Position numbers and translations under genes: made by a program
Notes under the pieces: generated by a model
Databases searched by the model: none
Told to the model about the DNA's origin: nothing
What the model saw: the letters and a program-made list of their open reading frames with translations, nothing else
Shown here: positions 21,069 through 40,497 of the stretch, in pieces
Numbering within the stretch: position 1 is the first letter of the stretch
Layout: each line of letters starts with the position of its first letter
Origin: an uncultured Actinomycetes bacterium
GTDB taxonomy: Bacteria; Actinomycetota; UBA4738; HRBIN12
DNA length: 64,000 nucleotides
Assembly: GCA_963723855.1 (NCBI GenBank)
Contig: CAVRSI010000013.1
Coordinates: 166,196-230,195, forward strand
Reading direction: 5' to 3'

Positions 21069-21286
21069 TCGAGCGCGTTCGTTCATCGGCTCGTCCCTTA
21101 TCGCAATGCGCTGCATCTCCATCCTCGATTGATCCGGCCGCCCCGTAGGCGCGAAGCACGCGCGTACCGCCCCGCTCGAGGAAGGGGGGATGCGGCAGAT
21201 CCTTCGGCGGGCAGGCCGTCGAAGAGGCGCGGGCGGACCACGACATCCGTACGCACGTGCAACCGTGCGATCGAAAGGAGTCACCC

Positions 21287-22686: not shown

Positions 22687-22767
22687 TCGAACGGATACGC
22701 GGACACGGGGTCCGGCCCTTCGGGCCGGACCCCGCTCCCACGACGACGCAGCGAGGAGCGACCAGAG

Positions 22768-24111
22768 ATGAAGCGAGTGGCTCGGATCGGCGGGCGGCGG
22801 TGCTCGCGGCCGCGCTGTTCGTCGCCGGCGGGATCGGCCTCTTCCGTTCGGGCGCGCGATGGTGCGCACGCACAGCGCGGCGTCCATCGCACCTCGGCGG
22901 ACACCTTGCTCGCGCCCGCGATCAGCGGGTCGCTCGAGCAGATCATCGAGAACCTCCAGTCCCGGCTCCGGGTGCTGCCCGACGGACTGGCAGGCGTTCG
23001 CATCCCTCGGCCTCGCCTACGTCCAGCAGGCGCGCGTCACGGCCGACCCCAGCTACTACCCGAAGGCCCAGGGCGTGCTGCGAGCGCTCGCTCGGGCTGG
23101 AGCGGAACGACAACTTCGCGGCCATGGTGGGCATGGCCGCGCTCGCCGCGGCCCGGCACGACTTCGCCGGCGCGCTGCGGTGGGGCGAGCAGGCCAAGGC
23201 GATCAACCCGTACAACGGCAACGTCTACGGCGTGATCGGCGACGCGCAGGTCGAGCTCGGCCGGTACCAGCGACGCGTTCGCGACGTTCCAGACGATGGT
23301 GGACACGCTGCCGGGCGTCGCTTCGTACGCCCGCGTCTCGTACGCCCGCGAGCTGATGGGCGACGTGCCCGGCGCGATCAAGGCGATGGAGGCGGCGCGC
23401 GACATCGCCGGGACGCCGGCGGACTCCGCGTGGGCGGGCTACCAGCTGGGCGAGCTGTACTTCAACCAGGGGAACCTCGACGACGCCGCAGGCTTGCCTA
23501 CGCTCGCGGCGTCGCGACCGACGCGGACTACGTCCCGCCGTTCGCCGGCCTCGCCAAGGTGGCGTGGGCGCGCGGGCACCTCCGGAAGGCGATCGCCGGC
23601 TACACCGATGTCGTCTCGCGGTACCCGTCGCCCGAGTACGTGATCGCGCTCGGCGACCTGTACACGGCGGCCGGCAGACCGAGCGAGGCCGCGCAGCAGT
23701 ACGCGCTGGTCCACGCCGAGGAGCAGCTCTTCCGGGCGAACGGCGTGAACATCGACCTGGAGCTGGCGCTGTTCGACGCGGCGCACGGCGATCCTGCGGG
23801 CGCGCTTGACGGCCGCTCGCGACGAGTGGGCCAAGCGACACAGCGTGCACGTGGCGGACGCGTACGCCTGGGCGCTCTACGCCGACGGGAGATACGGCCG
23901 AGGCGGCCGTCTACGCCCGGAAGGCCATGGCGCTCGGCTACCGCAACGCCCTGTTCGCGTTCCACGCCGGGATGATCCAGGCGCGAGCTGGGGAACCGCG
24001 ACGCAGGCGCGACGCCTGCTGGCGGAGGCGCTCGACATCAACCCGCACTTCTCGATCCAGTACGCGCCCGTCGCGCATGCGACGCTCGCGAAGCTTGGAG
24101 GCGCGGCATGA
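22768..24111 (+). pseudogene. Tetratricopeptide-repeat protein with N-terminal membrane anchor; about 10 frame breaks
   Basis: Fragments in all three frames join into MKRVARIGG/AAVLAAALFVAGGIGLF ... DWQAFASLGLAYVQQARVTADPSYYPKAQGVL ... NDNFAAMVGMAALAAARHDFAGALRWGEQAKAINPYNGNVYGVIGDAQVELGRY ... AGNRDAARRLLAEALDINPHFS. Breaks lie near 22795, 22855, 22983, 23080, 23270, 23490, 23805, 23895, 23990 and 24005. Confidence 0.75.
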
Positions 24112-25582
24112 GGCGGACCGTCCGCCGGTGCCTGGCGCTCGTGACGTTGCTCTCGGTCGCGGTCCTGTGGCCGGCGGCGGCTGCGTCGGCGCACCCGCTT
24201 GGGCAACTTCACCGTCAACCTCTACAGCGGCATCCACGTGGTGCCCGGTGAGATCCGGATCGACTACGTGATCGACATGGCGGAGATCCCGACGTTCCAG
24301 GAGATGCCCTCGATCGACACCGACGGCGATGGGCACGATGTCGGCGGCCGAGCTCGCGTCCTGGGCGGCGGGAGAGCGCCCGGCGCTCGGCCGACGAACC
24401 TCGTCGCTCTCGGTGGACGGGCGGCAGGTCGTCGCTCGAGGTGCGCTCGGCCGCCGCGCGCCTGCGCGACGGGCAAGGAGGACTGCCGATCCTGCGGTTC
24501 GAGGGGATGTTCGCGGCCCCCGTCGCGCGCGACGGGACGCATCGCGTACAGCGACGACAACGACGCCGACACGATCGGGCTGGCGCGAGATCACGGCGGT
24601 CGGCGAGGACGGGCGAGGCGATCGAGGGGCTCCGACGTGCCGGCCGAGAGCGTGAGCGACGCGCTGCTCTCCTACCCGCAGGATCTGCTGTCGAGCCCGT
24701 TGCACGTCACGTCGATGCGGGCGTCCTTCGCCCCGGGCGACGTCCGTCGGCTCGATCGATCCGAGCCGTCGGAGCGCGGTCGACGCGGCCCGGCCGGGCG
24801 TCGACACCGGCCCGTTCGCCGTCGCTCGTCGACAACCACGGGATCGTGCTGGTCCTGCTGGGGTTCGCGCTCGCCGTGGCGTTCGGCGCCTGGCACGCGC
24901 TTGCTCCCGGGACACGGGAAGACGCTGATGGCGGCGTACATGGTCGGCTCCGAGACGAAGGTGCGCCAGGCCGTGGCCGTCGGCTCGGCGGTCGCCGTGA
25001 TGCACACGGCATCCGTCCTGGGCCTCGGGCTGCTCGTGATCACGCTGGAGCAGACGTTCCGTCCCGAGGCGCTGTACCCGTGGCTCGGGCTGCTGTCCGG
25101 GGTCGTCGCCATCGGTCTGGGCGCCTACCTGATGATCGGCCGGCTCGCCGCGTGGTCGGACGCCGCAGGCGCGCCGAAGCACACGAACGCGACGCACGAC
25201 ATCGGGACGCAGCACGACCATGCCCACGACCATGCCGGCCACACGCCACGGCCTGCCCGAGGGCGTGTCGCTCACCTCGAAGCGCGGGACTGCTCGCGCT
25301 GGCGCTCGCCGGAGGCATCCTGCCGTCGCCGAGCGCGTTGATCGTGATGCTCGGCGCGATCCAAGGCGCACCGCGTCGGCTACGGGATCGGGCTGATCCT
25401 GGCGTTCAGCGTCGGCCTCGGCCCTGGCGCTGATCGTGGTGAGCCTGGGCGCGCTCCGCGCGCGCGAGGCCATGGCGAACCGCCTCTCGTCGTTCTGGGG
25501 GCGGCTGGTGCCCGTGCTCTCGGCCTCGGCGATCGTGGGGGTCGGGATGTTCCTCGCGGTCCGGGGCGCGATCCAGATCTAG
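24108..25582 (+). pseudogene. NicO/RcnA-type nickel/cobalt transporter with N-terminal extracytoplasmic domain; roughly 14 +1 frame breaks
   Basis: ATG at 24108 overlaps the TPR stop (ATGA). Has a signal peptide (AAASAHPLGNFTVNLYSG). Contains the transporter signature GAWHALAPGHGKTLMAAYMVGS, a His-rich loop HDHAHDHAGHTH and C-terminal LLALALAGGILPSPSALIVMLGA. The frame rotates by +1 repeatedly. Length 1475 = 3n+2, consistent with 14 insertions. Confidence 0.7.
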
Positions 25583-25608
25583 GAGCCGGCTCGCGCGGGA
25601 CCGGTTCG

Positions 25609-26965: not shown

Positions 26966-27202
26966 ATGCGCATCGTCCTGTATTCGAGAGCCGGCTGTCA
27001 TCTGTGCGAACTGGCCAGGGACGCGCTGCTGGCGGAGCGAGCCACGAGCCCGTTCGACCTGGTCGAGGTCGACATCGCCGGCGACGACGACCTCGAGCGC
27101 GAGTACGGGATCCGGATCCCCGTGGTGGAGATCGACGGGGAGGAGCGGTTCGAGTACGAGGTCGACGTGACCGAGCTGGCCTCCATCGTGCGGGACGCCT
27201 GA
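26966..27202 (+). CDS. Glutaredoxin-like protein
   Basis: 78 aa. MRIVLYSRAGCHLCELA has the CxxC motif, followed by YGIRIPVV. Confidence 0.8.
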   Translation: MRIVLYSRAGCHLCELARDALLAERATSPFDLVEVDIAGDDDLEREYGIRIPVVEIDGEERFEYEVDVTELASIVRDA

Positions 27203-27289: not shown

Positions 27290-27973
27290 ATGACGAAGGG
27301 CCGGCCCATCCCCGAGGCGACCGTGGGACGCCTGCCCATCTACCTCCAGGCGCTCGTCGACATCGCGGAGTCTGGGGAATCCAGGGTGTCGTCGGAGGAG
27401 CTGGCCGAGGCGGCGGGCGTGAACTCGGCGAAGGTGCGGAAGGACCTGTCCCACCTCGGCTCGTACGGGACGCGTGGCGTCGGCTACGACGTCGCCTACC
27501 TGATCCACCAGATCCGCCGCGAGCTCGGCCTGACGCAGGATTGGCCCATCGTGATAGCGGGCATCGGGAACCTGGGGCATGCGCTCGCGAACTACCGCGG
27601 GTTCCCGGAGCGCGGATTCAGCGTCGCCGCGCTGGTCGACGTCGATCCGTCGAAGGTGGGTCAGCGCGTCGGGCCGGTGGCCGTGCACCATGTGGACGAC
27701 CTGCCGGACCTGGTGCGATCGCTGGACATCGCGATCGGCGTGATCGCCACGCCCGCGGCGGTCGTCCAGGAGGTCGCGGACCTGATGGTCGAGGCCGGGA
27801 TCCGCTCGATCCTCAATTTCGCGCCGGCCGTGATCGTCGTCCCGAAGGGGGTGTCGGTCCGCAAGGTGGACCTGGCCGTGGAGCTGCAGATCCTGGCGTT
27901 CTACGAGCAGCGGAAGGCCACGCTCGCGGACGTGCGCCGCCGCGGACGTGCCGTGGCGGACGTCGAACGCTGA
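27290..27973 (+). CDS. rex: Redox-sensing transcriptional repressor Rex
   Basis: 227 aa. ATVGRLPIYLQAL, SSEELAEAAGVNSAKVRKDLSHLGSYGTRGVGYDV, and Rossmann IAGIGNLGHALANY. Confidence 0.93.
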   Translation: MTKGRPIPEATVGRLPIYLQALVDIAESGESRVSSEELAEAAGVNSAKVRKDLSHLGSYGTRGVGYDVAYLIHQIRRELGLTQDWPIVIAGIGNLGHALANYRGFPERGFSVAALVDVDPSKVGQRVGPVAVHHVDDLPDLVRSLDIAIGVIATPAAVVQEVADLMVEAGIRSILNFAPAVIVVPKGVSVRKVDLAVELQILAFYEQRKATLADVRRRGRAVADVER

Positions 27974-28087
27974 CTACTTCGCGATCGTCACCCACATCAG
28001 GAAGAGCACCACCAGCACCATCAGACCGAACAAGATGAACTGGATGCTCCCCTGCTCGAGGAGGGGGACCGCGTCCGCACCGATCAT
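27974..28087 (-). CDS. 37-aa single-TM peptide, last gene of the bc-like operon
   Basis: Not in the ORF track. AAGGAGGGAAACGACG precedes the ATG (cat at 28085-28087). Reads MIGADAVPLLEQGSIQFILFGLMVLVVLFLMWVTIAK. Confidence 0.55.
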   Translation of the reverse strand: MIGADAVPLLEQGSIQFILFGLMVLVVLFLMWVTIAK

Positions 28088-28115
28088 CGTCGTTTCCCTC
28101 CTTCAGACTTGGCGT

Positions 28116-28868
28116 CTATGCCGGGCCGTACCATGCGGGCGCGCTCCCACCGGTCAGGAACGCTTTCCGCTTCTTCTCCGCGCGATCGAGCAACGGGAGG
28201 TGGAACAGGAACAGCAGGATCGCAGCGATCATGAACATCAGCGAGTAGCGCGGCACGCTCCCCGAGTCGTGATACAGGGCAAGGGTGACCTGTGGGCCGC
28301 CTCCCGAGAAGTGCGCCTCCACGACCGCCAGCGGTGTCTTGCCGTCCTCGGCCGTGGCGAACTTCACGCTGTCGATCGTGAACTGCGTGCCCTGGATGGC
28401 GTCGGTGGCGAGCGGATCGATCCCCAATCCTTCGTTCGCCTTCAGCGCCAGGAACGTCGTGGCGGCGCTGCTCACGGACTGGATGGACGAAAGCTGGCCC
28501 GGGTTCGGCGCCGCCCAGCCGTCGCCGGGATACTCCTCGAACGTGGTGAAATGCTCCCCCGATACGCTGAGGCCGGCCTCCAGCACGACCCAGGCGGGCT
28601 CCTGGCCGCGCGGTCCCTGGTTGGTCGGCGTGCCGGGCCCCTGGGCCCAGAACCCGAAGAACCAGAGCGACGAGTGGATGATCAGCCATCCCGAGAAGCA
28701 GACCGCGAGGATGAGGTAGCCCATCCACTTGCCGAAGACGAACGAGAGCATCAGGTACACGCTGCCGACGAACAGGATGAACGCCATGATGACCACTCCG
28801 GCGCCCTTGAACATCGTGCCGCATTCGATGTGGAACCCCAAGCACGTGTGAACCTGCTGCGCGAGCAT
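28116..28868 (-). CDS. Membrane protein (N-terminal TM bundle, ~150-aa extracytoplasmic domain, C-terminal TM), function unknown
   Basis: In the ORF track this is the 3' part of 28116-29684. Once the cytochrome c frame is repaired, ATG at 28868 overlaps its TGA (TGATG). An alternative ATG lies at 28814. Confidence 0.6.
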   Translation of the reverse strand: MLAQQVHTCLGFHIECGTMFKGAGVVIMAFILFVGSVYLMLSFVFGKWMGYLILAVCFSGWLIIHSSLWFFGFWAQGPGTPTNQGPRGQEPAWVVLEAGLSVSGEHFTTFEEYPGDGWAAPNPGQLSSIQSVSSAATTFLALKANEGLGIDPLATDAIQGTQFTIDSVKFATAEDGKTPLAVVEAHFSGGGPQVTLALYHDSGSVPRYSLMFMIAAILLFLFHLPLLDRAEKKRKAFLTGGSAPAWYGPA

Positions 28869-29684
28869 CAGGCGCCGGCTCCGGTCGCACCCGTGGCGCC
28901 GCTCGCCCCTGAGGCGCCGCTCGCTCCTGAGGCGCCGCTCGCGCCCGAGGCGCCGCTCGCGCCTGCGGCGCCCGTCGCGCCGGTGGAGGCCGCCGGCGAG
29001 GCCGACGGAGAGTTGACCGCCTTCACCGCGTCGGGGTTCGATGCAGATGTTGTCCTTGAACGGGATGTTCTTCGAGCTCATGTAGACCAGGTAGTTCACG
29101 ATGTCGTTGATCTGCTGGTCGTCGAGCGCGCCCTGGTACCGGATGCTCCACGACGGCATCACGTTGCGCCCTTGCTCGATCGTCGTGTAGATGTCGTCGA
29201 GCGACTTGATGAGCGGGTGGCCGTACTTCGGTCCTCCGCAGACCGTCGTCAGGTTCGGGGGATAGGCGTAGCCGGTGCCCGACGGGATCACTCCGCCGCG
29301 GAGCTCCGGACCGTGACACCTGACGCATCCCACGCCGAGCTGGTTCTCCTCGCTGAACAGCTGCGTCGCGAGGTGACCCCGCGCGATGGCTTCCGTCTTC
29401 AGCGCCTTCTCCTGCTCGAGGTTCGTCGAGGGCTCGATCAACCAGGTGAAGGGGAGCCAGACGACGAAGAACGCGACCAGGAGCACGCCCCAACCCTGGA
29501 GCTTCTGCAGGAGCGGCGTCTCGAGCGCGGGATCCGACGGGCCGGGCTCCATCGCCGGCGGGATGTCCGGAGCCGGCTCGCGCGTGACGCGGCTCCGCAG
29601 GATGAGGGCCGCCGACGCCGCCACGACGAAGATGCCCCCCAGGACGAGGAGGATCACCCCCGCGGTGTCGCTCAACGCCAGCAT
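28868..29684 (-). CDS. Membrane-anchored monohaem cytochrome c with Gly/Ala/Ser-repeat tail; one +1 frame break
   Basis: Two N-terminal TM segments. Haem motif CVRCHG and distal MPSW. Removing one C from the CCCC run (plus-strand GGGG 29033-29036) gives ...ICIEPDAVKAVNSPSASPAASTGATGAAGASGASGASGASGASGASGASGATGATGAGA, stop at 28868-28870. Length 817 = 3n+1. Confidence 0.75.
28896..28985. repeat. Five tandem copies of an 18-bp unit (GCGCCGCTCGCNCCNGNG)
   Basis: Units at 28896, 28914, 28932, 28950 and 28968 (the last degenerate). On the minus strand they encode the (GAS)n tail of the cytochrome c. Confidence 0.85.
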
Positions 29685-29705
29685 GTCGTCGATCCGGTCC
29701 TCTCG

Positions 29706-30251
29706 CTATCCCGGGGCCACGCAGAACGGACCCTGCGGCGGTTCGTCGATCGTGTCGGTCCCTCGCGGAGGTCCGAGGATCACCGTCGAGGTGTCCACGA
29801 ACACGTTGCCGTTCTCGACCTTCACGACGAAGCGATCCATCCCGCGTGGGGCCGGGCCCAGCTGGTACTCGCCCGCGAAGTTGTACTTGGAGCCGTGGCA
29901 CGGGCACTCGAACCACTGCGAGGACGCGCAGAACGGCACCCGGCACCCCAGATGCACGCACCGCTGATAGAGCGGCATGATGCCGTCGGTGGTCACCTGC
30001 TCAGCCGGGTAGTCGGCGTCGGGGGTGACCTTGCCGTCCCACGGCACCACGTAGAAGCGCCCCGCACCGTTGTACACGGGTCCGTCGCCCAGCTGCGACT
30101 TGATGTCGGCCAGCGCCCCCGCGTTGATCACCGAGCCGAACCCACCCTTCAGGCTCGGCCAGAGGAACGCGATCGTCGCCCCGCCGAACTGCGCACCGAA
30201 CACGAGCAGCGAGGTCAACAGGGACTTGCGGAAGAAGTCGCGCCGGGACAT
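29706..30251 (-). CDS. Rieske [2Fe-2S] subunit (possible N-terminal extension to 30411, see findings)
   Basis: Twin-arginine MSRRDFF followed by a TM segment. Cluster boxes CVHLGC and CPCHGS. 181 aa. Confidence 0.9.
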   Translation of the reverse strand: MSRRDFFRKSLLTSLLVFGAQFGGATIAFLWPSLKGGFGSVINAGALADIKSQLGDGPVYNGAGRFYVVPWDGKVTPDADYPAEQVTTDGIMPLYQRCVHLGCRVPFCASSQWFECPCHGSKYNFAGEYQLGPAPRGMDRFVVKVENGNVFVDTSTVILGPPRGTDTIDEPPQGPFCVAPG

Positions 30252-30407
30252 GGCCGGGGCCTTCCGCGCCGGGGCCGGGCGCGCCGTCGGCGACGTCCCG
30301 TTGCACCTTGGCGGCCCGCATGAACGACAACCCGAACACGATCGCGAACACGTCGATGATCACGAAGACGACGATCGCCGCGACGACGCGGGTGGAGATC
30401 GCGAGCG

Positions 30408-31253
30408 TCATAGGTCGAAGAACACCCCTTGCGCCCACGGCCAGATCCAGTTGTAGCCGGGGCCGCGGAAGAAGCAGCCGATGATCGTGAGCGTCGCGCC
30501 GAAGCAGAACAAGATCGTGAACATCGAGATCGCGATCTTGCGATCGCCCGGCCGGACGCTCGGGTTGCGGTCCACGTACGGCACCGCGGCCAGGCCCACC
30601 AGGATGAACGTGGGGATCGTGATACCGGCGATCATCGGGTGGAAGTAGCGGAGCAGCTCCTGGAGACCCAGGAAGTACCACGGGGCCTTCGACGGGTTCG
30701 GCGTGAGGTTCGGGTTGGCCAGCTGTCGGAGCGGAGCCATCACGAACGTCGAGAAGACCAGCAGCCCTGCCGTGAGGATCAGCATGGCCACGAACTCCTC
30801 GATCAGCAGGTGCGGCCAGACGTTGACGCGGTCGCCTTGCTCGCGCTCGACTCGCTGGATGCCCTCCGGCGGGACGAGCGCGAGGAGGCGGTGCTTGTCG
30901 TTCGCGCCCTTCTTCGGCGTCGGGATGTTGCCGGTGGGAAGGGGTGCGGTGCGCACCGGCGTGGTGACCGGTGTCGCGACGGCGACGGCCGCCGCCGGAG
31001 CCAGGCGGGGGCTGCAGCGGCTGCCGGCGCGGCGGCCGGTGCGCCTGCCGCCGGGGCCGCCGCCGCGGGGGCGGACGGCTGCGGCCGGGGCCGGAGCGGC
31101 GGCTTCCTCCTCGGGATGAGCGGCCTTGTACGCGCGGACCGCGGCCGAGCGAGCACGGCCCTCCGCGACACGACGGTCCGAACCCTTCGCGAGCTCGGCC
31201 GCGAGCGTCGCGTCGAAGACTGCCTGATCGAGCGGGGTGTCTTCTCTCGCCAT
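30408..31253 (-). CDS. Cytochrome b C-terminal half / subunit IV (PetD-like) with long Ala/Pro-rich N-terminal extension
   Basis: 281 aa. PNPSKAPWYFLGLQELLRYF corresponds to the PEWY-box region. Three TM segments. The N-terminal ~130 aa are low complexity. Confidence 0.8.
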   Translation of the reverse strand: MAREDTPLDQAVFDATLAAELAKGSDRRVAEGRARSAAVRAYKAAHPEEEAAAPAPAAAVRPRGGGPGGRRTGRRAGSRCSPRLAPAAAVAVATPVTTPVRTAPLPTGNIPTPKKGANDKHRLLALVPPEGIQRVEREQGDRVNVWPHLLIEEFVAMLILTAGLLVFSTFVMAPLRQLANPNLTPNPSKAPWYFLGLQELLRYFHPMIAGITIPTFILVGLAAVPYVDRNPSVRPGDRKIAISMFTILFCFGATLTIIGCFFRGPGYNWIWPWAQGVFFDL

Positions 31254-31267
31254 CGCTCAGTCGCCCC

Positions 31268-32040
31268 CTACAGCGGTCCCGAGATGCCGCCGTCCTTGCG
31301 GATCCGCCAGAAATGGACCGCAAGGAAGATCACCAGCACGAACGGCAACGCCAGCACGTGGAGCACGTACCACCGCAACAGGGTGTTGCGGTCCCACGAC
31401 GACGCCGCCCAGCAGCAGGAAGTTGGCCTGCTTGGCGATGAACGGAGAGTAGCCCGCGAGCGACGTGCCGACCGTGACGGCCCAGATCGCCAGCTGGTCC
31501 CACGGCAGCAGGTAGCCGGTGAACGAGAGGCCGAGCGTGAGGAAGAGCAGGATCACGCCGACGACCCAGTTGAATTCCCGCGGCGGCTTGTAGGCGCCGG
31601 TGTAGAACACGCGCGCCATGTGCAGCGTCACGGAGAACACCATCAGGTGCGCGCCCCACCGGTGGAGGTTGCGGACCAGGTCCCCGAAGAACACCGTCGT
31701 CCGGATGCTCTGCATGTCGGCGTAGGCGACGGCGCCGCCGATGTCGGCCATCGGCCGGTAGAAGAACATCAGGAAGATCCCGGTGACCGTCGAGCAGGAT
31801 GAACAGGAAGAACGACAGGCCGCCCAGGCAGAACGTGTAGGTGAGCTTCAATCCGTGCCGCTTCACCTTCACCGGATGCAGGTGGTACAGCACGTTGTTC
31901 ATGGTGGCGAGCGCGCGATCGCGCGATGTGTCCTTGTAGCCCTTGCGGAAGATGGAGCCCGGCCGGAAGATCGACTTCCAGACCTCGGTGTCGCGCAGGC
32001 GGTCGCCGACCTCGCTCGGCGACGGCGGCTTGAGCTTCAC
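31268..32040 (-). CDS. Cytochrome b6-type subunit (N-terminal half of cytochrome b); two +1 frame breaks
   Basis: The two track ORFs 31330-32040 and 31257-31769, plus a third frame, join into a 256-aa protein. Contains [11 protein letters not shown] (Cys codon at 31828-31830), [38 protein letters not shown] and [29 protein letters not shown]. Breaks at about 31790-31795 and 31404-31408. Length 773 = 3n+2. Confidence 0.85.
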
Positions 32041-32085
32041 CAGGCGTTCCCTCCCCTTCTCAGCTCGATCGCGGTCGCCCCGGCC

Positions 32086-32484
32086 TCACTCCGCCGCGGC
32101 CTGCGACAGAGGGACCTCAGCCATCGGGCGCGTTCCGCCGGTCGAACCCTCCGGCAGGCGCGCATAGTACAGCGTGTCGGTGGGGCATCGGTCGACGCAC
32201 ACGGAGCACCGGGTGCACGCGTTGTCGTCCACCACGAAGATCGCAGAGGCGACGTTCACCTCTGCCCCGACGGCCTGCTCGTCGGCTCCCTCGACGATGT
32301 CCGTCGACAGCATGTAGATGCAGTTCCAGGGACACACGTCCTCGCAGGCGCGGCAGAGGATGCAGTTGTCGGGGTCGAGCATCAGATGCTTCGGGGACTT
32401 GACCCCTTCGGCGAGCCAGGCCGGGTCGACCGCCTCCACGACGTAGTCCTCGTGGATGTCGACCTCGGTCTTCGTGAATACCAT
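32086..32484 (-). CDS. 2x[4Fe-4S] ferredoxin-type protein
   Basis: 132 aa with two CxxCxxCxxxCP motifs (CILCRACEDVCP, CTRCSVCVDRCP). No signal peptide or TM segment. Confidence 0.85.
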   Translation of the reverse strand: MVFTKTEVDIHEDYVVEAVDPAWLAEGVKSPKHLMLDPDNCILCRACEDVCPWNCIYMLSTDIVEGADEQAVGAEVNVASAIFVVDDNACTRCSVCVDRCPTDTLYYARLPEGSTGGTRPMAEVPLSQAAAE

Positions 32485-32491
32485 CGCGGCT

Positions 32492-32881
32492 CTACCGATA
32501 CCCGCCCGTGGGGCGCACGTCGCCCGCCTGCCCGCGGAGCTTCCGGCGCCAGTTCTGCATGATCGCCGCGACCACCAGGATGCCGATGATCGGCACCGTC
32601 ACCAGGCCCATCGCGATCGCGTCGCGGAGCTCCTTCAACCAGAAGCCGTGCGGGCCGGCGCCGCTCCATTTCAGCTTCTGGTCGGCGAAGTACAGCCAGA
32701 ACGACGGGATCACCGATGTGAAGATGACGATGAAGAACGTGAGCACAACGGAGAAGACGACGGCCTTGGTCCAGTTCCATTCGAAGGTCTTGAGGAAGCC
32801 TTCGGCCTGCTGTTTGCGGTGGGCGAGCCGTGCCTTCGTCTTGGCGAACCGAGGCGCGTCCACAACCTCGATCTGGCTCAT
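32492..32881 (-). CDS. Two-TM membrane protein, first gene of the bc-like operon, function unknown
   Basis: 129 aa. Hydrophobic segments AVVFSVVLTFFIVIFTSVI and GLVTVPIIGILVVAAIM. GGAGA lies upstream of the ATG. Confidence 0.6.
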   Translation of the reverse strand: MSQIEVVDAPRFAKTKARLAHRKQQAEGFLKTFEWNWTKAVVFSVVLTFFIVIFTSVIPSFWLYFADQKLKWSGAGPHGFWLKELRDAIAMGLVTVPIIGILVVAAIMQNWRRKLRGQAGDVRPTGGYR

Positions 32882-32908: not shown

Positions 32909-32914
32909 ATTATA
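32909..32914 (-). promoter_or_regulatory. Candidate -10 hexamer TATAAT for the bc-like operon
   Basis: The minus strand reads GGCTATAATCGCC, 27 nt upstream of ATG 32881. No clear -35 element. Confidence 0.35.
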
Positions 32915-32950: not shown

Positions 32951-32968
32951 TTGTGAATCGCTTCACGA
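32951..32968. promoter_or_regulatory. Rex operator-like palindrome TTGTGAATCGCTTCACGA
   Basis: Matches TTGTGAA-N4-TTCACAA at 13 of 14 defined positions. Lies in the divergent region between the bc-like operon and ccdA. Confidence 0.6.
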
Positions 32969-33090
32969 ACTAGCACTATGCCGCCCGCGAGCGCCCGTCG
33001 CAACCCAAACGGCGCGTCGCCGGCTCGCGCGCGGCGGCCCATAGGCGGCGGCCCATACACTGAGCCCCGCTCCCGGACCCCGAGGCAGCG

Positions 33091-33819
33091 ATGATCGCCG
33101 ACATCGTCCAGACCGGCCTCACCTCATGGTGGGCACCCGCCCTCGCCTTCGTGGCGGGACTCGTCTCGTTCGCGTCGCCGTGCGTGTTCCCGCTCGTCCC
33201 CGGTTACGTGTCCTTCGTCTCGGGCGAACGAGCCGTCGACGGCGAGACGCAGCGTCCCTTGCTGCCGATCCTGCTCTTCATCGCCGGGTTCACGATCGTG
33301 TTCACGCTGCTCGGTGCGTTCGCCAGGCGGTTCGTGCCGATCTTCAAGGGCGACGTGGGCCAATGGGTCGGCGGCGCCGTGGTGATCGCGATCGGCCTGT
33401 TCATGATCGGCTACGCCCTCCGGCGCGGCTCCGTCACGCTCTACATGGAGCGGCGCCCGTTCCTCGAGAAGGTCCGGCCCGGCGCGGTGGGGGCGTTGCC
33501 GCTCGGCATGGCGTTCGCGGCGGGGTGGACGCCGTGCCTCGGCCCCGTGCTGACGGGGATCCTGGCGATCGCGGTCACGGAGAGCACGCTGCGCGGCATC
33601 GTGCTGCTCCTCGCGTACTCCCTCGGTCTGGGGGTTCCGTTCTTCCTCGTGGGGCTCGGCGTCCAGCGGTTCATGGGCGCGTTCGGCTGGGTCCGTCGTC
33701 ACTACGCATGGATCGCGGGCGTGTCGGGGGCGCTGCTGGTCGTGGTGGGCGTGCTGTTGGTGACGGGGGAGTTCACCCGGATCGTCGCGCCGCTCGCTCG
33801 CTTCGCTCCCGGCTTGTGA
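33091..33819 (+). CDS. ccdA: Cytochrome c biogenesis thiol-reductant transporter CcdA
   Basis: 242 aa. FASPCVFPLVPGY and GWTPCLGP are the two conserved Cys motifs. Confidence 0.9.
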   Translation: MIADIVQTGLTSWWAPALAFVAGLVSFASPCVFPLVPGYVSFVSGERAVDGETQRPLLPILLFIAGFTIVFTLLGAFARRFVPIFKGDVGQWVGGAVVIAIGLFMIGYALRRGSVTLYMERRPFLEKVRPGAVGALPLGMAFAAGWTPCLGPVLTGILAIAVTESTLRGIVLLLAYSLGLGVPFFLVGLGVQRFMGAFGWVRRHYAWIAGVSGALLVVVGVLLVTGEFTRIVAPLARFAPGL

Positions 33820-33891
33820 GCTGCCCACAGGCTGCTCCGCTCGCACCCGCACCTGGTTCCGCGCCCGACCGTAGAATCCTCGCGAAGCCCC

Positions 33892-35472
33892 ATGTCCTCC
33901 TCCAGCCGGATCACCTTGCGACGGTCCACGGCCTTGGTGTGGCGCACCCTGCGCTCGATGCGCACCGCGCTGATCCTGTTGCTGATGCTCGCGCTCGCTT
34001 CCGTGGCGGGGTCCCTGGTGCCCCAATGGCCGAACTCGCCCGAGCGCGTGATCCGGTATCAGCTGGACCACCCGCTGGTCGGCGCGTTCTACGGGCGGGC
34101 CGGGCTCTTCGACGTGTACGGATCGTGGTGGTTCGTGCTGATCACGACGCTGCTGTTCGTCTCACTCGTCGCGTGCCTGTTCCCGCGCACCCGGGCGCTC
34201 GTGCGCACGCTCCGCCAGCGTCCGGTCCAGGCGCGCGAGATCGATGCGTTCCGGCTGTACGAGGAACGCGTGGTCTCGGCGGATCCCGCCCGAGCGATCG
34301 ACGGGTCGCGCCGCGTGCTTCGCCGCCGCCTGTTCCGCGTGGCGCGAGACGGCGACGGCCGGCCGGCGCTCGCCGCCGAGAAGGGCGCGCTCCGTGAGGT
34401 CGGGAGCCTGCTCTTCCATTGGGCGTTCCTGTTGATCGTGATCGGCGTGATCTACGGCAAGGGCACCGGCTTCACCGGCAGGGCGGTGGTGGTGGAGGGC
34501 AAGACGTGGATCGACGCGCAGGCGAACTACGACGGCGACCTGCGCACCGGACGGTTCTTCAACGACGACTTCACCGGTGTGGGGCTCCACCTCCGAGGGT
34601 TCGAGGACACGTACCGGACGAGCGGCCAGCCGATGGACTTCGTCTCGCACGTGGATCTGTTGGACCCGCAGGGCAACGTGTCCCGGCAGGCCGACATCCG
34701 CGTGAACCATCCGGCCTCGATCGACGGGGTGGAGTTCTTCCAGTACGGCTTCGGGTGGGCGCCCGTCGTGGAGGTTCGTGAGCACGGCGAGCTCATCGCG
34801 TCCGAGCCCATCACGTTCGTCCAGGACACGGCCCCCGAAGGTATCCCGCAACTGGCGATGCCGTGGCACGGCATCCTCAAGCTGCCGTCGCTGCACCCGC
34901 AGGTGGGCCTCACCCTGGAGCTCTGGCCGGACAGCCGCGCGTGGCTCCAGCTGCGGACGACCGGCCAGCCGGTCGCGATGACCCAGTCGTTCGAGCCGAT
35001 CATGTTCTACAAGGTGTACCGCGGCGACCTGACCGACACGTCGCCCCGGTCCCTCGACGCCACGGTGATGCGGAAGGCCGGACAGGGTGTCGTGGGCGCC
35101 GCGCAAACCGTCGACCTGCGGACCGGGAAGGTGGTCGCCGACGGCACCTCGGTGTCCGGCCTCACGATCTCGTTCCCCGAGCTACGGCAGTACAGCGTGT
35201 TCCAGGTGAGTCGCGACCGTGGTGTGCCCTTGGTGTTGCTTGCCGCTATCCTCGTGCTGCTCGGACTCCTGCCCGCGCTGTACTCGTCGCGACGCAAGGT
35301 CTGGGTGCGAGCGGAGCCGAACGGAACCGGAACCGTGCTCAAGGTCGGGGGATTCGCCCTGCAACGCAAGCCGCAGTTCGATGAGGAGTTCTCGAAGCTC
35401 GTGGACGCCATGGCCCGCGCCGCGGGCGACGCGCCGGCGGTCGAGGAGAGGGAGCCGGTGAGCTCGCGATGA
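33892..35472 (+). CDS. resB: Cytochrome c biogenesis protein ResB (Ccs1)
   Basis: 526 aa. N-terminal RSMRTALILLLMLALASVAGSLVPQ, a large extracytoplasmic loop and a C-terminal TM segment. Syntenic with ccdA and ccsB. Confidence 0.88.
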   Translation: MSSSSRITLRRSTALVWRTLRSMRTALILLLMLALASVAGSLVPQWPNSPERVIRYQLDHPLVGAFYGRAGLFDVYGSWWFVLITTLLFVSLVACLFPRTRALVRTLRQRPVQAREIDAFRLYEERVVSADPARAIDGSRRVLRRRLFRVARDGDGRPALAAEKGALREVGSLLFHWAFLLIVIGVIYGKGTGFTGRAVVVEGKTWIDAQANYDGDLRTGRFFNDDFTGVGLHLRGFEDTYRTSGQPMDFVSHVDLLDPQGNVSRQADIRVNHPASIDGVEFFQYGFGWAPVVEVREHGELIASEPITFVQDTAPEGIPQLAMPWHGILKLPSLHPQVGLTLELWPDSRAWLQLRTTGQPVAMTQSFEPIMFYKVYRGDLTDTSPRSLDATVMRKAGQGVVGAAQTVDLRTGKVVADGTSVSGLTISFPELRQYSVFQVSRDRGVPLVLLAAILVLLGLLPALYSSRRKVWVRAEPNGTGTVLKVGGFALQRKPQFDEEFSKLVDAMARAAGDAPAVEEREPVSSR

Positions 35473-36426
35473 CCGACCTGCAATGGGGCCGGCTGTCCAA
35501 CGACGCGTTCACCGTGGCGCTCTTCGCGTACATCGTCGCGATGGTGGGGTACTTCGCGTACCTCGCCTTCCGCCGAACCTCGCTCTGGGCCACCGCCCGC
35601 ACCATCGCAACCGTCGGGTTGGTCGCGAACGTCGTCTGCGTGGCGACGCGAGGGCTCGCCGCCCACCGCGTGCCGTGGGGCAACATGTACGAGTACTCGG
35701 TCCTGCTGGCGCTCCTCGTGGTCGCCGGGTACCTGCTGATCGTCGAGGGCTACTACAAGATCCGAACCCTCGGCGGGTTCGCGTTGATGTTCTCGGTGTT
35801 CACCATGGCGATCGCCGTGTCGTTCCTCTACGTGGGTCCGGGGCCGCTCGTACCCGGCGCTGAACTCGTACTGGATCAAGATCCACGTGGTCGCAGCGAT
35901 CACCGGTTCGTCGCTGTTCGCCCTGGGCGGCGGCGTCCTCACGATCTTGTTCCTGATCCAGGACCGCAAGGAACGCCGAGAGGTGGCCGCGCTCCGCGCG
36001 CAGGAGCCGCCGCCCATCATGGGTGGATCGGTCGGCGTCGACGCGCCACCCGACTTCTCGCCGGATGCCGACGAGCCCGCGAGCGGCGCCGTCGCACGGC
36101 GAGGCGTGCTGCCCCCGGCCGCGTCGCTCGATCGCATGGCGTACCGGGTGATCGCCTTCGCGTTCCCTATCTGGACGTTCGCGGTGATCGCCGGCGCGAT
36201 CTGGGCGCAGAGCGCGTGGGGACGGTACTGGGGCTGGGATCCGAAGGAGACGTGGTCCTTCGTCACGTGGGTGATCTACGCGGGGTATCTCCACGCGCGT
36301 TCGACGTCCGGGTGGAAGGGGCGGCCGGCGGCCGTCATCGCGTTGGTCGGCTTCGTCTCGCTGCTGATCACGTATTACGCGGTGAACCTCTGGATCGTCG
36401 GGCTGCACTCGTACAAGGGGTTCTGA
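35469..36426 (+). CDS. ccsB: Cytochrome c-type biogenesis protein CcsB (ResC); one +1 frame break
   Basis: Contains WGNMYE and the WGRYWGWDPKETW (WWD-type) motif. Frame is lost at CCC 35853-35855. The repaired join is ...GPLVPALNSYWIKIHVVAAITGS. Length 958 = 3n+1. Confidence 0.88.
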
Positions 36427-36431
36427 CAACA

Positions 36432-36455
36432 CCGCCGCAGTCGTTCGAGCGGCGG
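36432..36455 (+). terminator. GC-rich hairpin CCGCCGC-N10-GCGGCGG after ccsB
   Basis: 7-bp perfect stem. No U-tract. Could be an intra-operon attenuator or processing site. Confidence 0.25.
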
Positions 36456-36533
36456 AGGGGACGGTGGTACAGTGCGCGCGGCCCGGCGCCCGCACCGGCG
36501 TCGGAGCGCCTGTACCGGGGAGGCAAGGGAGAC

Positions 36534-37636
36534 TTGCGGAAGCGGCTGCTCTGGGTCCTGGGCCTCGCGGCCCTCGGCCTGATGCTGGCGTCCTGCGCTC
36601 CGCATGCCAGCCAGGATTCGTTGCAGCCCGCCGGTCCGTACGCGCAAGAGATCAAGAACCTCTTCGTCCCGGTGTTCTGGATCGCGGTCCTCGTCTTCGT
36701 GATCGTCGAGGGCGGGATCGTGCTCCTCGTCGTGAAGTATCGCCACCGCAAGGGGCAAGAGCGGATGCCCCCGCAGATCCACGGGAACACGCGCCTGGAG
36801 ATCGGCTGGACGATCGTGCCCGCCGTCATCCTCGCGGTCGTCATGGTGCCGACGGTGGCGACCATCTGGGACCTGGCGCGCAAGCCGCCCGCGGACGCGC
36901 TCCACATCACGGTCCAGGGTCATCAGTGGTGGTGGGGGTTCGTCTACACGGACGCCGACATGAAGACCACGTACGACACCAACGGCCCCATCACCGTCGC
37001 CGACGTCATGGTGATCCCCGCCGGCCGGCCGGTGTACCTGGATCTCGAGTCGGTGGGAGGCCTGATCGGCGGGCACGAAGGCGCAGGCCGACTACGCGGT
37101 GATCCACTCGTTCTGGATCCCGCAGCTCGCCGGGAAGCAGGACGTGGTCCCCGATCGGACGAACCACATCCTGATGCAGGCCGACCATCCGGGGACCTAC
37201 TTCGGTCAATGCGCTGAGTTCTGCGGGCTGGAGCACGGCAAGATGCGAGCGCGGGTCGTGGCGCTGTCCCAAAGTGACTGGGAGGCGTGGGTCGCCAACC
37301 AGAAGCAGCCGAGCGTCACGCCGATCGGATCCGCTCGCCGCCAAGGGGATGGATCTGTTCTCCAACCCGCTCTCGGGTGACCGGGGCAGCTGCATGGCGT
37401 GCCACTCCCTCGGAGGCATCGTGACCGGCGTGAACGCCGCCCCGAACCTGACGCACTTCGCCGATCCGAACCATCAGTGCTTCGCCGGGTGCGATTGGGA
37501 GACGGTCGACGAGGAGGCGCTCGCCGCGTGGCTGCACGATCCGAACGCCGTGAAGCTCGGAGCGAAGATGCCCAACTACCACCTGACCCAGGGCGAGATC
37601 GACGCGCTGGTCGCTTACCTCGAGAGCCTGACGTGA
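36534..37636 (+). CDS. ctaC: Cytochrome c oxidase subunit II with fused C-terminal cytochrome c domain (caa3-type), lipoprotein signal; two +1 frame breaks
   Basis: TTG at 36534 after GGGAGG. Lipobox LASC. CuA site HSFWIPQLAGK...CAEFCGLEHGKM. Haem c motif CMACHS. Breaks at GGG 37071-37073 and GG 37327-37328. Length 1103 = 3n+2. Confidence 0.88.
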
Positions 37637-37650
37637 GGGGGTCTCGGTAG

Positions 37651-39526
37651 ATGGCGAGCATCTCCATGCCGGCCGAGCGGACCCGGGGCATCCGTCGTCC
37701 CTCGGCGTTAACCGGCTTCTCGAGCTGGCTCACGACCGTGGACCACAAGAAGATCGGCCTGATGTACGGGGTGACCGCGTTCGCGTTCTTCATCATCGGC
37801 GGTCTGGAGGCCCTGCTGATCCGCTCCCAGCTCGCGCGTCCGGATCAGACCATCCTGAACGCCGATCAGTACAACCAGATCTTCACGATGCACGGGCTCA
37901 CGATGATCTTCCTGTTCGTGATGCCGATGTCGGCGGCGTTCTTCAACTACCTGATCCCGCTGATGATCGGCGCCCGGGACGTGGCGTTCCCGCGCATCAA
38001 TGCGTTCAGCTATTGGTTGTTCCTGTTCGGCGGGTTGTTCCTCTACTCCAGCTGGTTCCTGGGCGGCGCGCCCAACGGCGGGTGGTTCGGATACGCGCCC
38101 AACTCCACGACCGACCCCACCATCGGCATGACGTTCTACGCGTTGGGACTGCTGCTCACCGGGATCGCGTCGACGGCGGGCGCCGTCAACCTCGGCGTCA
38201 CGATCATCAACATGCGCGCGCCGGGTATGTCGTTCTTCCGGCTCCCCGTGTTCGTCTGGATGGGGCTCGTGACGCAGCTGCTCCTGGTGTTCTCGTTGCC
38301 GATCATCACGGTCGGGCTGTTCGAGCTGCTCTTCGACCGCCGGTGGGGAACCCATTTCTTCGACCCGACCCAAGGCGCCGACCCGGTCCTGTGGCAGCAC
38401 CTGTTCTGGCTGTTCGGCCACCCGGAGGTCTACATCCTCATCCTGCCCGCGTTCGGCATCTTCTCGGAGGTGCTGCCGGTCTTCAGTCGCAAGCCGCTGT
38501 TCGGGTATCAATTCGTGGTGTTCTCGGGGATCGCGATCGGGTTCATCGGGTTCGGCGTCTGGGCGCACCACATGTTCGCCGTGGGCCTGGGTCCGGTCGC
38601 GAACACGGCGTTCGGCATCTCGACGGCGATCATCGCCATCCCGACGGGCGTGAAGATCTTCAACTGGATGGCGACGATGTACAAGGGCGACCTGCGGTTC
38701 ACCTCCGCGATGATGTTCTCGGTCGGCGGCGTGGCGATGTTCGTCATCGGCGGGCTATCCGGCGTGACGCACTCGATCGTCCCCGCCGACTACCAGCAGA
38801 CGGACACGTACTACATCGTGGCGCACTTCCACTACGTCCTCTTCGGGGGCGCGATCTTCGGCCTGTTCTCGGCGGCGTACTACTGGTGGCCGAAGGTGTT
38901 CGGTCACCTGCTGTCCGAGGGCCTGGGCAAGCTGCACTTCTGGCTCATGATCATCGGGTTCAACCTGGCGTTCGGGCCCATGCACATCCTCGGCCTGCAG
39001 GGCATGATCCGCCGGGAGTACACGTACCCGGCGTCGCTCGGTCTCACGTTCTGGAACGAGATCTCCACGCTGGGCGCGTTCATCATCGCGGTGTCGATCC
39101 TGGTGTTCATCGCCAACGCGGTGCGGACGACCATGCGCCACCGCCCGCTCGAGTCGAACGATCCGTGGGACGCGCGCACGCTCGAGTGGATGACGGCGTC
39201 GCCGCCGCCCGTCTACAACTTCGACGAGATCCCGGACGGTCCACTCGCTCGACGAGTTCTGGCACCGCAAGTACGCCGAGGACAAGAGCGGGAGGCTCGT
39301 TCCCGTCCAGGCGGGTGCCGCGGATCGGCTCGAGCCCGACCGGTCGCACGGGACGGCGCACGCGATCCATCTGCCGAGCCCCTCGTACTGGCCGATCGTC
39401 GCGGCCCTCGGACTTCCCATCATGGCCTACGGGGTCATCTACTCGTGGTGGCTGGTGGGCCTCGGCGTGGCGGTCACGCTCGTCGGTGTCTACGGATGGG
39501 CCCTCGAGCCCTCGGTGGCGGAGTAG
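37651..39526 (+). CDS. ctaD: Cytochrome c oxidase subunit I with extra C-terminal two-TM extension; one +1 frame break
   Basis: Classical haem-copper oxidase sequence (WLFGHPEVYILILPAFG, HHMF, HFHYV). Break at GG 39234-39235. The repaired tail is EIPTVHSLDEFWHRKY...HLPSPSYWPIVAALGLPIMAYGVIYSWWLVGLGVAVTLVGVYGWALEPSVAE, stop at 39524-39526. Confidence 0.92.
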
Positions 39527-39528
39527 CC

Positions 39529-40147
39529 ATGGCCGACGTCGCGATCGACGAAGGGACACGACGAGCACGAGACCACGACCGGTCTCCCGCACACCAAGCT
39601 CGCGATGTGGCTCTTCCTCTCCTCCGAGTGCCTGCTGTTCGGCGCGCTGATCACCACGTACGTGCTGTACCGGAACGCGAGCATCAAGGGTCCGTACCCG
39701 TCAGACGTCTTCGACATCGGCTACACATCGGTGTCGTCGTTCGTCCTGCTGGCCAGCTCACTGACCATGGTGCTCGCGCTCGCCGCCGCGCAGAAGCGGG
39801 ACTTCATGCGGATGCGTCTATGGCTCGTCACGACGGCGATGCTCGGGCTGACGTTCGTGGGAGGTCAGGTCTACGAGTTCACGCACTTCTACCGCGAGGG
39901 CCTGGCGATCACCACCAACCTCTTCGGCACGACGTTCTTCGTCCTGACCGGCTTCCACGGCGTGCACGTCACCGTCGGCATCTTGATGCTGCTGTCGCTC
40001 ACGGGGATGTCGTTCGCGGATCGGCTCCCCGAGGATCCGGCGTTCCCCGTGGAGATGGTGGGTCTGTACTGGCACTTCGTCGACATCGTGTGGATCATCA
40101 TCTTCACGGTGGTGTACCTGATCCCAACGGCTCCGGCCGGGAAGTAG
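39529..40147 (+). CDS. ctaE: Cytochrome c oxidase subunit III; one +1 frame break
   Basis: ATG at 39529. Break at GGG 39553-39555. The repaired N-terminus is MADVAIDEGHDEHETTTGLPHTKLAMWLFLSSECLLFG. Also contains FHGVHVTVG and YWHFVDIVWI. Length 619 = 3n+1. Confidence 0.88.
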
Positions 40148-40152
40148 GAGCG

Positions 40153-40493: not shown

Positions 40494-40497
40494 CGCG

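Follow-up and report, generated by a model that had tools for sequence, protein, structure and literature searches.

What kind of quinol-oxidizing complex is encoded by an actinobacterial operon in which the genes for a cytochrome b6-type protein and a Rieske protein are joined by a gene for a two-cluster ferredoxin and by three genes for membrane proteins of no known family, and what might the ferredoxin do there? The question is raised by a 64,000-nucleotide stretch of DNA from an uncultured Actinomycetes bacterium (GenBank assembly GCA_963723855.1, contig CAVRSI010000013.1, positions 166,196 to 230,195; the whole stretch is called the window here, and coordinates count from its first letter), in which a preliminary description made from the sequence had recognized a b6f-like operon at 27974-32881. 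Few energy-converting enzymes have been studied as thoroughly as the Rieske/cytochrome b complexes, and yet the function of haem ci is still unsettled, as is whether ferredoxin can feed electrons into the quinone-reduction side. We found that the operon very probably encodes a complex III with a conserved ferredoxin partner, the ferredoxin gene being locked to a b6 gene of the haem-ci type across an uncultured soil actinobacterial lineage and the sampled Acidimicrobiia-type loci. Taken as a whole, the best explanation appears to be a complex III in which the ferredoxin acts as a two-cluster wire on the cytoplasmic (n) side, a reading that we favor with moderate confidence.

The operon comprises eight minus-strand genes, here called g1 to g8 in the order of transcription, and translation of the open reading frames (ORFs) of the window bore out their previously described order and overlaps. 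The first gene, g1 (32492-32881), encodes a 129-aa protein with two transmembrane (TM) helices, and g2 (32086-32484) encodes a 132-aa 2x[4Fe-4S] ferredoxin that resembles NuoI and HycF, with two CX2CX2CX3CP motifs and Pfam matches to Fer4 and Fer4_7. The next four genes specify the catalytic core: g3 (31268-32040), a cytochrome b6-type subunit of 256 aa after frame repair (Pfam Cytochrome_B); g4 (30408-31253), a 281-aa subunit IV-like protein with the quinol-oxidation (Qo) motif APWY (Pfam Cytochrom_B_C); g5 (29706-30411), a Rieske 2Fe-2S protein with a TM helix (Pfam Rieske); and g6 (28868-29684), a mono-haem cytochrome c of class I (CVRCH) that has two TM helices at its N-terminus. A 250-aa membrane protein (g7, 28116-28868) and a 37-aa hydrophobic peptide with a single helix (g8, 27974-28087) complete the set. 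The intergenic gaps from g1 to g8 measure 7, 45, 14, -4, 21, -1 and 28 nt, with g4 and g5 overlapping in an ATGA at 30408-30411 and g6 and g7 in a TGATG at 28868. In profile searches of all eight products the ferredoxin, b6, subunit IV, Rieske protein and cytochrome c were matched, and no Pfam or NCBIfam family was found for g1, g7 or g8.

All eight genes are present in order, but in the sequence of the window as it stands three of them are broken ORFs, and the preliminary description had read through four frameshifts without reporting them. Using a plot of third-position GC content (GC3) together with three-frame translation, we located the breaks as follows. Cytochrome b6 is spread over three reading frames by extra bases at 31792 and 31388; the Rieske protein's N-terminal helix is out of frame with the Rieske domain (extra base at ~30280); and an extra base at 29039-29041 puts the cytochrome c domain in a different frame from its Gly/Ala/Ser tail, so that the cytochrome c as written runs into g7 to give a 522-aa ORF. 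A local shift of frame also affects part of the Ala/Pro linker in subunit IV (~31004-31078). An ORF-based reading of the window therefore requires frame repair first, after which cytochrome b6 covers positions 9-188 of the 189 in Pfam Cytochrome_B. When the locus was aligned with eight relatives of roughly 74-100% protein identity, all four single-base insertions proved to be private to the window (absent in 8 of 8 relatives).

Four frame breaks within ~5 kb of sequence might be taken to mean that the frameshifts are real and that the operon is a decaying pseudogene cluster in the source organism. We consider this extremely unlikely, given that GC3 holds at 0.85-1.0 in the shifted frames, where stops are not accumulating, and that private indels occur at equal density in the flanking regions and in other essential genes. 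Over 11 kb around the operon we counted 10 private indels of a length other than a multiple of 3 in the window (~0.9 per kb), and other contigs of metagenome-assembled genomes (MAGs) built from long reads show a similar rate; the closest genome matches are nanopore-derived 'MFD' soil MAGs. The genes for CcsA, CoxII (twice), CoxI, CoxIII and a cupredoxin are likewise frame-split (35469-42375, with breaks at, for example, about 35852, 37080, 37290, 39235, 39530-39605 and 41800). Finally, a 94%-identical NCBI assembly with short contigs (L002) has every gene of the operon intact, with products of 129, 132, 256, 278, 234, 271, 250 and 37 aa, the 234-aa one being the intact g5 orthologue. Because of this private indel rate, the broken neighbors and the intact genes of the close relative, the frame breaks are long-read assembly consensus errors and not signs of pseudogenes.

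Once repaired, the core belongs to the b6-type family in the broad sense, and its division into a split b6 and subunit IV, as first described, is upheld by the Pfam matches, by alignment with a solved structure and by the CxGG and PxWY-type motifs. The best solved relative of g3 is the b6 of Chlamydomonas cytochrome b6f (1q90_B, E value 9e-45), with which its four haem-ligand histidines align as two pairs of 13-residue spacing in helices B and D. The FCLGG of g3 aligns with YCIGG (Cys35) of the Chlamydomonas protein, which is the CxGG motif of haem ci/cn, and a covalently bound haem ci is predicted for g3 from this motif. In g4, a separate three-helix subunit IV, Cytochrom_B_C covers residues 179-271. 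The Rieske protein has a first TM helix, an internal twin-arginine motif (SRRDFFRK), a second helix and the cluster boxes CVHLGC and CPCHGSKY, and g6 matches only the class I families Cytochrome_CBB3 and Cytochrom_C. These features are well kept among relatives: FCLGG in 54 of 56, APWY in 70 of 74 (as APWYFL), the Rieske boxes in 76 of 78 and a single CxxCH in g6 in 79 of 80. The Gly/Ala/Ser tail of g6 is an 18-nt tandem repeat (28877-28981) that varies in copy number among close relatives, and the g6 orthologues of outgroup operons (L084, L087, L088 and L093) are di-haem, the window lineage having one haem and the tail.

Both cytochrome b subunits extend into the cytoplasm further than their known counterparts, a trait specific to the ferredoxin-linked operons. 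Cytochrome b6 begins with a conserved 45-residue cytoplasmic N-terminal extension, its residues ~20-66 being near-invariant across all ferredoxin-linked operons, and the cytoplasmic N-terminal region of subunit IV (~145 residues) consists of a conserved helix, the Ala/Pro linker and a conserved segment. Residues 1-45 of g3 are absent from the ExtP and PetB profiles and residues 1-145 of g4 from those of ExtQ and PetD, the NCBIfam models of the latter two aligning with g4 only from residue ~145. The N- and C-termini of g1 are basic and both are read as cytoplasmic. Together with these termini, the b6 and subunit IV extensions would make a plausible n-side docking surface for the ferredoxin, beside the predicted haem ci, and g1 is a candidate membrane anchor or partner for it.

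The ferredoxin itself is read as cytoplasmic, since g2 has no signal peptide, twin-arginine motif or TM helix. It carries a family-specific N-terminal extension (DDYxLxEVDxxWL), and both CX2CX2CX3CP motifs are present in 52 of 53 relatives. Against the NuoI model TIGR01971 it aligns over residues 22-108 (E value 5.6e-10), with 38.9 bits against a cut-off of 113, a similarity that is weak but covers almost the entire protein, and its best PDB match is a module of the polyferredoxin FwdF, with NuoI and NdhI chains also among the matches. In g7, another membrane protein without a family, a TM hairpin leads into a periplasmic alpha/beta domain of ~130 residues, which is followed by a C-terminal TM helix and by a tail that is invariant (PLLDRAEKKRK...WYGPA); it has >592 homologues. 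Its AlphaFold2 model (confidence score, pLDDT, 78) shows the same two N-terminal helices, periplasmic alpha/beta domain and C-terminal helix, and a fold search of this model against the PDB returned no structural relative (best TM-score 0.14, beta-lactamase noise).

To see how far the ferredoxin and the orphan genes travel with the Rieske and cytochrome b genes, we scanned an alignment of g7 homologues against one genome per species and then searched with the eight products by tblastn. The survey gave 80 loci, all from uncultured Actinomycetota MAGs at the species level, and in every locus long enough the eight genes stand in the same order, with ccdA (divergent) and rex (convergent) on either side. 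Wherever a related locus extends far enough, g1 lies upstream of the ferredoxin gene, g8 was found at the same position in 78 related loci by tblastn, and rex adjoins the operon in 75. Within the window lineage the median identity is 92.6% for b6, 83.3% for the ferredoxin, 74% for subunit IV, 65% for the Rieske protein, 62% for cytochrome c and for g8, 59% for g7 and 56% for g1. Only b6 surpasses the ferredoxin in conservation, and the ferredoxin is therefore under stronger constraint than the Rieske protein, which ranks below it.

The initial search for ferredoxin homologues found the same lineage only, at >=82% identity, and the outgroups came from representatives of 50%-identity clusters. 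In distant outgroup loci the ferredoxins are 32-41% identical to g2, and 8 of the 9 distant N-extended ferredoxins that we examined are encoded directly upstream of a b6-type gene (251-263 aa where intact). The module there runs from a small TM protein through ferredoxin, cytochrome b, subunit IV, Rieske protein and cytochrome c to a further membrane protein. Weak positional homologues of g1 and g7 were found in these outgroups: those of g1 share a TWxxA...VPxxWLxY motif, and the counterparts of g7 share the TM hairpin, the periplasmic domain, the C-terminal helix and the basic tail. As the outgroup loci carry the module together with these g1 and g7 homologues, seven of the eight genes form a module older than the split of the window lineage from the Acidimicrobiia. 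The three membrane proteins previously described as orphans cannot be assigned to a family, but they are not private to the lineage, g1 and g7 having positional homologues in the outgroups.

The surroundings of the module vary among the outgroups. Downstream of the module, L084 and L088 have a convergent rex gene and L089 has a Rex-like gene on the same strand. In an NCBI MAG labeled Ilumatobacteraceae, the source of one of these ferredoxins, and in a 3.4-Mb contig the module lies directly upstream of nuoA, and in Acidimicrobiia-type loci a divergent cytochrome c gene lies upstream of the module and nuo genes downstream. A profile of the outgroup ferredoxins matched 3924 proteins at E <=1e-5, the named ones belonging to Acidimicrobiales and Ilumatobacteraceae, so the family counts thousands of metagenomic sequences in the Acidimicrobiia-type group. 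By these comparisons the operon is not peculiar to the source genome and represents instead the standard type of the Ilumatobacteraceae-labeled MAG and its Acidimicrobiia relatives. The co-conservation of the ferredoxin and the orphans with Rieske and cytochrome b genes, on which the preliminary description had staked its interpretation, was found to be strict in the 80 MAGs and to extend to distant lineages as well.

This distribution also bears on whether g2 could be an ordinary soluble ferredoxin that is merely co-transcribed within the Rex regulon, without a physical or direct electron link to complex III. It has no membrane anchor of its own, its Pfam matches are to generic Fer4 only, and one relative (P0286, L095 672-1085) lies outside any cytochrome b context. 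We nevertheless regard a free ferredoxin as improbable: the positions of g1, ferredoxin and cytochrome b are invariant across lineages whose ferredoxins are only 32-41% identical to g2, the gene junctions are tight or overlapping (g1 and the ferredoxin gene are 7 nt apart in the window and overlap or lie 3 nt apart in outgroups), and the family-specific N-terminal extension is absent from a control ferredoxin that is not in a cytochrome b context. The stray relative P0286, possibly a paralogue that serves another partner, is N-extended and 40% identical, has an insertion in the first cluster motif and lies beside a 511-aa gene without annotation.

In the window lineage the operon adjoins System II cytochrome c maturation genes (CcdA/ResB/CcsA, 33091-37217), and in two outgroups, L084 and L087, it adjoins System I genes (CcmABCEFH). 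It looks as if one maturation system had been swapped for the other beside a complex III module that stayed conserved.

The same adjacency may be read as a sign that the ferredoxin and g1, and possibly g7 and g8, are dedicated biogenesis factors and not subunits, for example a system on the cytoplasmic side that would maintain either the haem or the cysteine in reduced form, so that the one thioether bond of haem ci can be made. In cytochrome b6f the CCB pathway serves haem ci attachment, and such a system would take its place; because no operon product has a CCB-family Pfam match, the maturation route of the predicted haem ci is unaccounted for, and the genes in question always lie beside cytochrome b without a recognizable catalytic partner. 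We judge this explanation unlikely all the same. A ferredoxin that is second in conservation, above the Rieske protein, is more typical of an electron-transfer subunit; the adjacency to maturation genes is not universal, the Acidimicrobiia-type loci being flanked by cytochrome c and nuo genes; and the cytoplasmic extensions of b6 and subunit IV, being conserved, point to a docking surface of a permanent kind. To our knowledge, there is no Fe-S protein in any cytochrome maturation system.

Does the operon correspond to any characterized complex? In line with the preliminary description, comparison with solved structures, curated families and the literature produced no complex that matches it subunit for subunit, and in none of these sources did we find such a complex described with a ferredoxin, g1 or g7. 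The silence of the literature, as far as it can be searched, is no proof, and the gene clusters themselves are already in public genomes. With cytochrome b6f (PetB/PetD/PetC/PetA) the operon shares the split into a four-helix b6 and a three-helix subunit IV, the histidine ligands and the cysteine of CxGG. A Rieske protein is common to both, the best curated match of the operon's being the b6f iron-sulfur subunit, below its cut-off. Small single-helix peptides likewise accompany the core in both, and no homology of g8 to PetG/L/M/N was detected. However, b6f has cytochrome f where the operon has a class I cytochrome c with two TM helices, so that neither g6 nor g8 supplies the cytochrome f and PetG/L/M/N that define b6f in the strict sense. 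The Qo motif of b6f is PEWY instead of APWY, b6f lacks the long cytoplasmic b6 and subunit IV extensions, the encoded ferredoxin, g1 and g7, and it works in photosynthesis whereas the context of the operon is respiratory.

The Firmicute and heliobacterial b6c complexes (QcrABC; PetCBDA) share with the operon a respiratory b6-like core of Gram-positive type, the CxGG motif and a c-type cytochrome in place of cytochrome f, and the Firmicute-type complexes, like that of the operon, would work with a caa3-type oxidase. In a tblastn search of plasmids with cytochrome b6, Bacillales QcrB showed 46-48% identity, and nothing but generic cytochromes b at <48% was matched. We know of no counterpart of the ferredoxin, g1 or g7 in Firmicute or heliobacterial operons. 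Subunit IV is fused to cytochrome c in Firmicute QcrC, whereas in the operon the two are encoded separately with the Rieske gene between them, and the Firmicute-type Qo motif is PDWY or PEWY as against APWY here (PMC4122944). The Firmicute complexes had been proposed as one of the nearest analogies; by sequence, the closest catalogued relatives are instead the APWY clade, or subfamily G, which includes ExtP and ExtQ.

On account of its APWY motif and its short CxGG cytochrome b, the operon can be placed in the APWY clade of Kao and Hunte (2014; PMC4122944), which corresponds in our usage to subfamily G of Dibrova et al. (2017; PMC5600118), an assignment made by motifs and not by a tree. According to the former paper, no member of the APWY clade had been characterized in vitro or in vivo, and the split cytochrome b of Ilumatobacter is among the few actinobacterial cases, in the PEWY-cyt c or APWY clade (PMC4122944); split cytochromes b from deep-branching Actinobacteria of the Ilumatobacter kind are thus already on record for the APWY clade. 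The motif of the clade is typically WCMGG (PMC4122944), whereas the operon has FCLGG. Geobacter ExtO/ExtP/ExtQ, the nearest curated families, share the short CxGG cytochrome b and the APWY subunit IV. The best NCBIfam match of g3 is ExtP, with a borderline 288.6 bits just below the cut-off of 290, and that of g4 is ExtQ with 54.6 bits against 150, so that both fall short of the equivalog cut-offs. In the Geobacter ext cluster the core is paired with multihaem cytochromes and an outer-membrane porin, without a ferredoxin (PMC5877670), and neither multihaem cytochrome nor porin genes were found near the operon among the ORFs and family searches of the window. The operon type is widespread and overlooked, with its core already catalogued.

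The anammox gene clusters Kuste4569-4574 and Kustd1480-1485 are a further point of comparison, having a b6-like core with subunit IV and a protein for which a place on the cytoplasmic face has been proposed, where it would link the n-side of the complex with redox carriers of the cytoplasm (PMC12954380; PMC5600118). In anammox bacteria this added subunit is a large Fe-S flavoprotein that binds NAD(P), whereas in the operon it is a 132-aa ferredoxin with two clusters, and the partners on the opposite (p) side are hexa- or octahaem cytochromes, as against a mono-haem cytochrome c here. Neither an NAD(P)- or FAD-binding domain nor a multihaem protein was found among the eight products with Pfam and NCBIfam, which sets the operon apart from the anammox type. 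The resemblance does suggest a way in which the ferredoxin could serve as an outlet: quinol oxidation would be bifurcated, with the low-potential electron passing through haems bL, bH and ci and the two clusters to a cytoplasmic acceptor, either a ferredoxin or, via a partner, NAD(P)+, as has been proposed for the anammox complexes (PMC12954380). A b6-like core with a cytoplasmic Fe-S protein is what that proposal describes (PMC12954380; PMC5600118), and the unusual APWY motif is common to complexes suspected of reversed or atypical Q cycles (PMC4122944). We think that electron output in this direction is rather improbable, as the operon has no NAD(P) or flavin module and sits in the context of an ordinary aerobic chain with a caa3 oxidase and complex I; by reasoning alone, moreover, driving electrons from menaquinol to a low-potential 4Fe-4S pair against the membrane potential would be energetically marginal.

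The complex III usual for the phylum, the actinobacterial QcrCAB (bcc), would have the same role in the chain, and its Rieske protein shares with g5 the extra N-terminal helix before an internal twin-arginine motif. A QcrCAB-like di-haem cytochrome c occurs in the outgroup versions of the operon, and in the window lineage it is mono-haem. In contrast to the unsplit QcrB of ~540 aa, the operon has a split cytochrome b that contains CxGG and stands much nearer to b6; the gene order differs and genes have been added. The operon has neither an unsplit QcrB nor a di-haem QcrC, and its products score far below the respective models (bc1_QcrB_actin, 107.6 bits against a cut-off of 500; bc1_QcrA_actin, 23.1 against 275). 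For the ferredoxin, the nearest parallel lies in the NuoI/TYKY-type subunits of complex I and hydrogenases, which have the two CX2CX2CX3CP clusters and an N-terminal extension in common with g2. The genomic partner of NuoI is NuoH/NuoB, whereas that of g2 is cytochrome b6. NuoI/TYKY-type proteins are wires on a membrane subunit beside the quinone site.

Putting these results together, we propose that the product of the operon is the quinol:cytochrome c oxidoreductase with which an uncultured Actinomycetota lineage oxidizes what is presumably menaquinol. It would run a Q cycle with an n-side of the b6 type, comprising haems bL and bH and the predicted haem ci; the separate subunit IV would contribute the APWY motif of quinol oxidation, and electrons would pass through the two-helix Rieske protein and the membrane-anchored mono-haem cytochrome c towards the caa3 oxidase encoded nearby. 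The products of g1, g2, g7 and g8 are constant members of the module, whether they serve as its subunits or as partners dedicated to it, and they would be physically associated with the core. The ferredoxin would dock on the cytoplasmic face, held by g1 and by the N-terminal extensions of b6 and subunit IV, and would act as a NuoI-like wire of two clusters that joins a redox partner in the cytoplasm to the haem ci/quinone-reduction site. Its most plausible task there would be to deliver low-potential electrons to the quinone pool, although we can offer this input role only tentatively. Precedent exists in the cytoplasmic Fe-S/NAD(P) subunits proposed for b6-like anammox complexes (PMC12954380; PMC5600118).

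Besides the ferredoxin relative found away from cytochrome b genes, several points weigh against this proposal. The operon encodes no dehydrogenase or flavoprotein module, so that the ferredoxin has no recognizable partner, and its AlphaFold2 model, built on a 43-sequence alignment, is unusable (pLDDT 46). Linkage of g1, g2, g7 and g8 within an operon would fit dedicated assembly factors equally well. Core catalysis does not require the ferredoxin, as related complexes of the APWY clade, Geobacter ExtOPQ among them, work without a ferredoxin gene (PMC5877670). The haem ci of the operon is predicted from a motif alone, in a clade that is uncharacterized for it (PMC4122944), and the genome may carry a qcrCAB-type complex outside the 64-kb window. 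In its most specific form, with the ferredoxin as a permanent n-side subunit that wires low-potential cytoplasmic electrons into the haem ci/quinone-reduction site, we regard the proposal as possible but doubtful. Were it true, this complex III would double as an oxidoreductase between ferredoxin (or another low-potential donor) and menaquinone. It would then be the respiratory and hard-wired equivalent of the much-disputed path from ferredoxin to b6f in cyclic electron flow, and a living example of a cytochrome b to which a cytoplasmic oxidoreductase is attached, the form from which bc complexes have been proposed to descend. Should the ferredoxin be a subunit at all, these non-photosynthetic bacteria would offer a tractable test of n-side electron entry into a b6-type complex, an abundant environmental class would have a main complex III whose composition has not been described before, and the finding would bear on the proposal that bc complexes began as membrane-anchored dehydrogenases.

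How the operon is expressed can be read in part from its flanks. A single, tightly packed transcription unit behind a -10 box and a Rex-like operator had been described, and our analysis agrees. A perfect TATAAT hexamer on the minus strand (32909-32914) precedes the g1 ATG by 27 nt; a scan for two-hexamer sigma-70 promoters found no full promoter, so TATAAT is a -10-only candidate, and a terminator scan gave only weak matches, all of them within coding sequence. The Rex operator consensus is TTGTGAA-N4-TTCACAA, and the divergent ccdA/g1 intergenic region holds a palindrome of this type at 32951-32969 (TTCGTGAAGCGATTCACAA, that is, TTCGTGAA-GCGA-TTCACAA) with one mismatch to the consensus. Its core, GTGAA-N4-TTCAC, is kept upstream of g1 in 40 of 51 related loci. 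In the window this core has three exact matches, including the one upstream of g1, and seven sites with <=1 mismatch, as against 0.84 expected by chance. The other two exact boxes, GTGAAGCCCTTCAC and GTGAAGCCTTTCAC at 46197-46210 and 46230-46243, precede a geranylgeranyl-reductase-like gene (46265-47512) and nuoA (from 47457).

The rex gene itself (27290-27973, plus strand) encodes a redox-sensing repressor, with Put_DNA-bind_N and CoA_binding matched by Pfam in an orthologue, and it is convergent with the operon and abuts g8. A putative operator in the promoter region and an adjacent rex gene are thus both present, as would be expected of a member of a Rex regulon. Because exact Rex boxes lie before g1 and before the nuo region, the operon is probably co-regulated with complex I by the NADH/NAD+ ratio via Rex, and in the scheme proposed above this NADH/NAD+ sensor would set the expression of both together. 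Control by Rex fits a respiratory role in the main chain and does not discriminate among the mechanistic models for the ferredoxin.

Several minor features of the neighborhood were also recorded. A glutaredoxin-like gene (PF05768) adjoins rex at 26966-27202 on the plus strand and again in the distant outgroup L088 (9022-9252), and it may be part of the conserved neighborhood. An Rfam scan of the window returned no match. The ccdA/g1 intergenic region contains a perfect 14-nt tandem duplication (GCGGCGGCCCATAG x1.9, 33031-33057), the extra copy of which is absent in 8 of 8 aligned relatives and could be real or an assembly artefact. Further away, a segment of ~4.5 kb (21072-25605) is present in the window and in L001 and is missing from L004, a 95%-identical MAG contig; it matches by position the DUF4331, TPR and NicO-like genes of L001 and represents a presence/absence polymorphism. 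On the minus strand at 42953-45025 lies a single 690-aa ORF, to judge by reading its sequence an apparent fusion of a CtaA-like haem A synthase in the N-terminal half with a CtaB-like protohaem farnesyltransferase in the C-terminal half.

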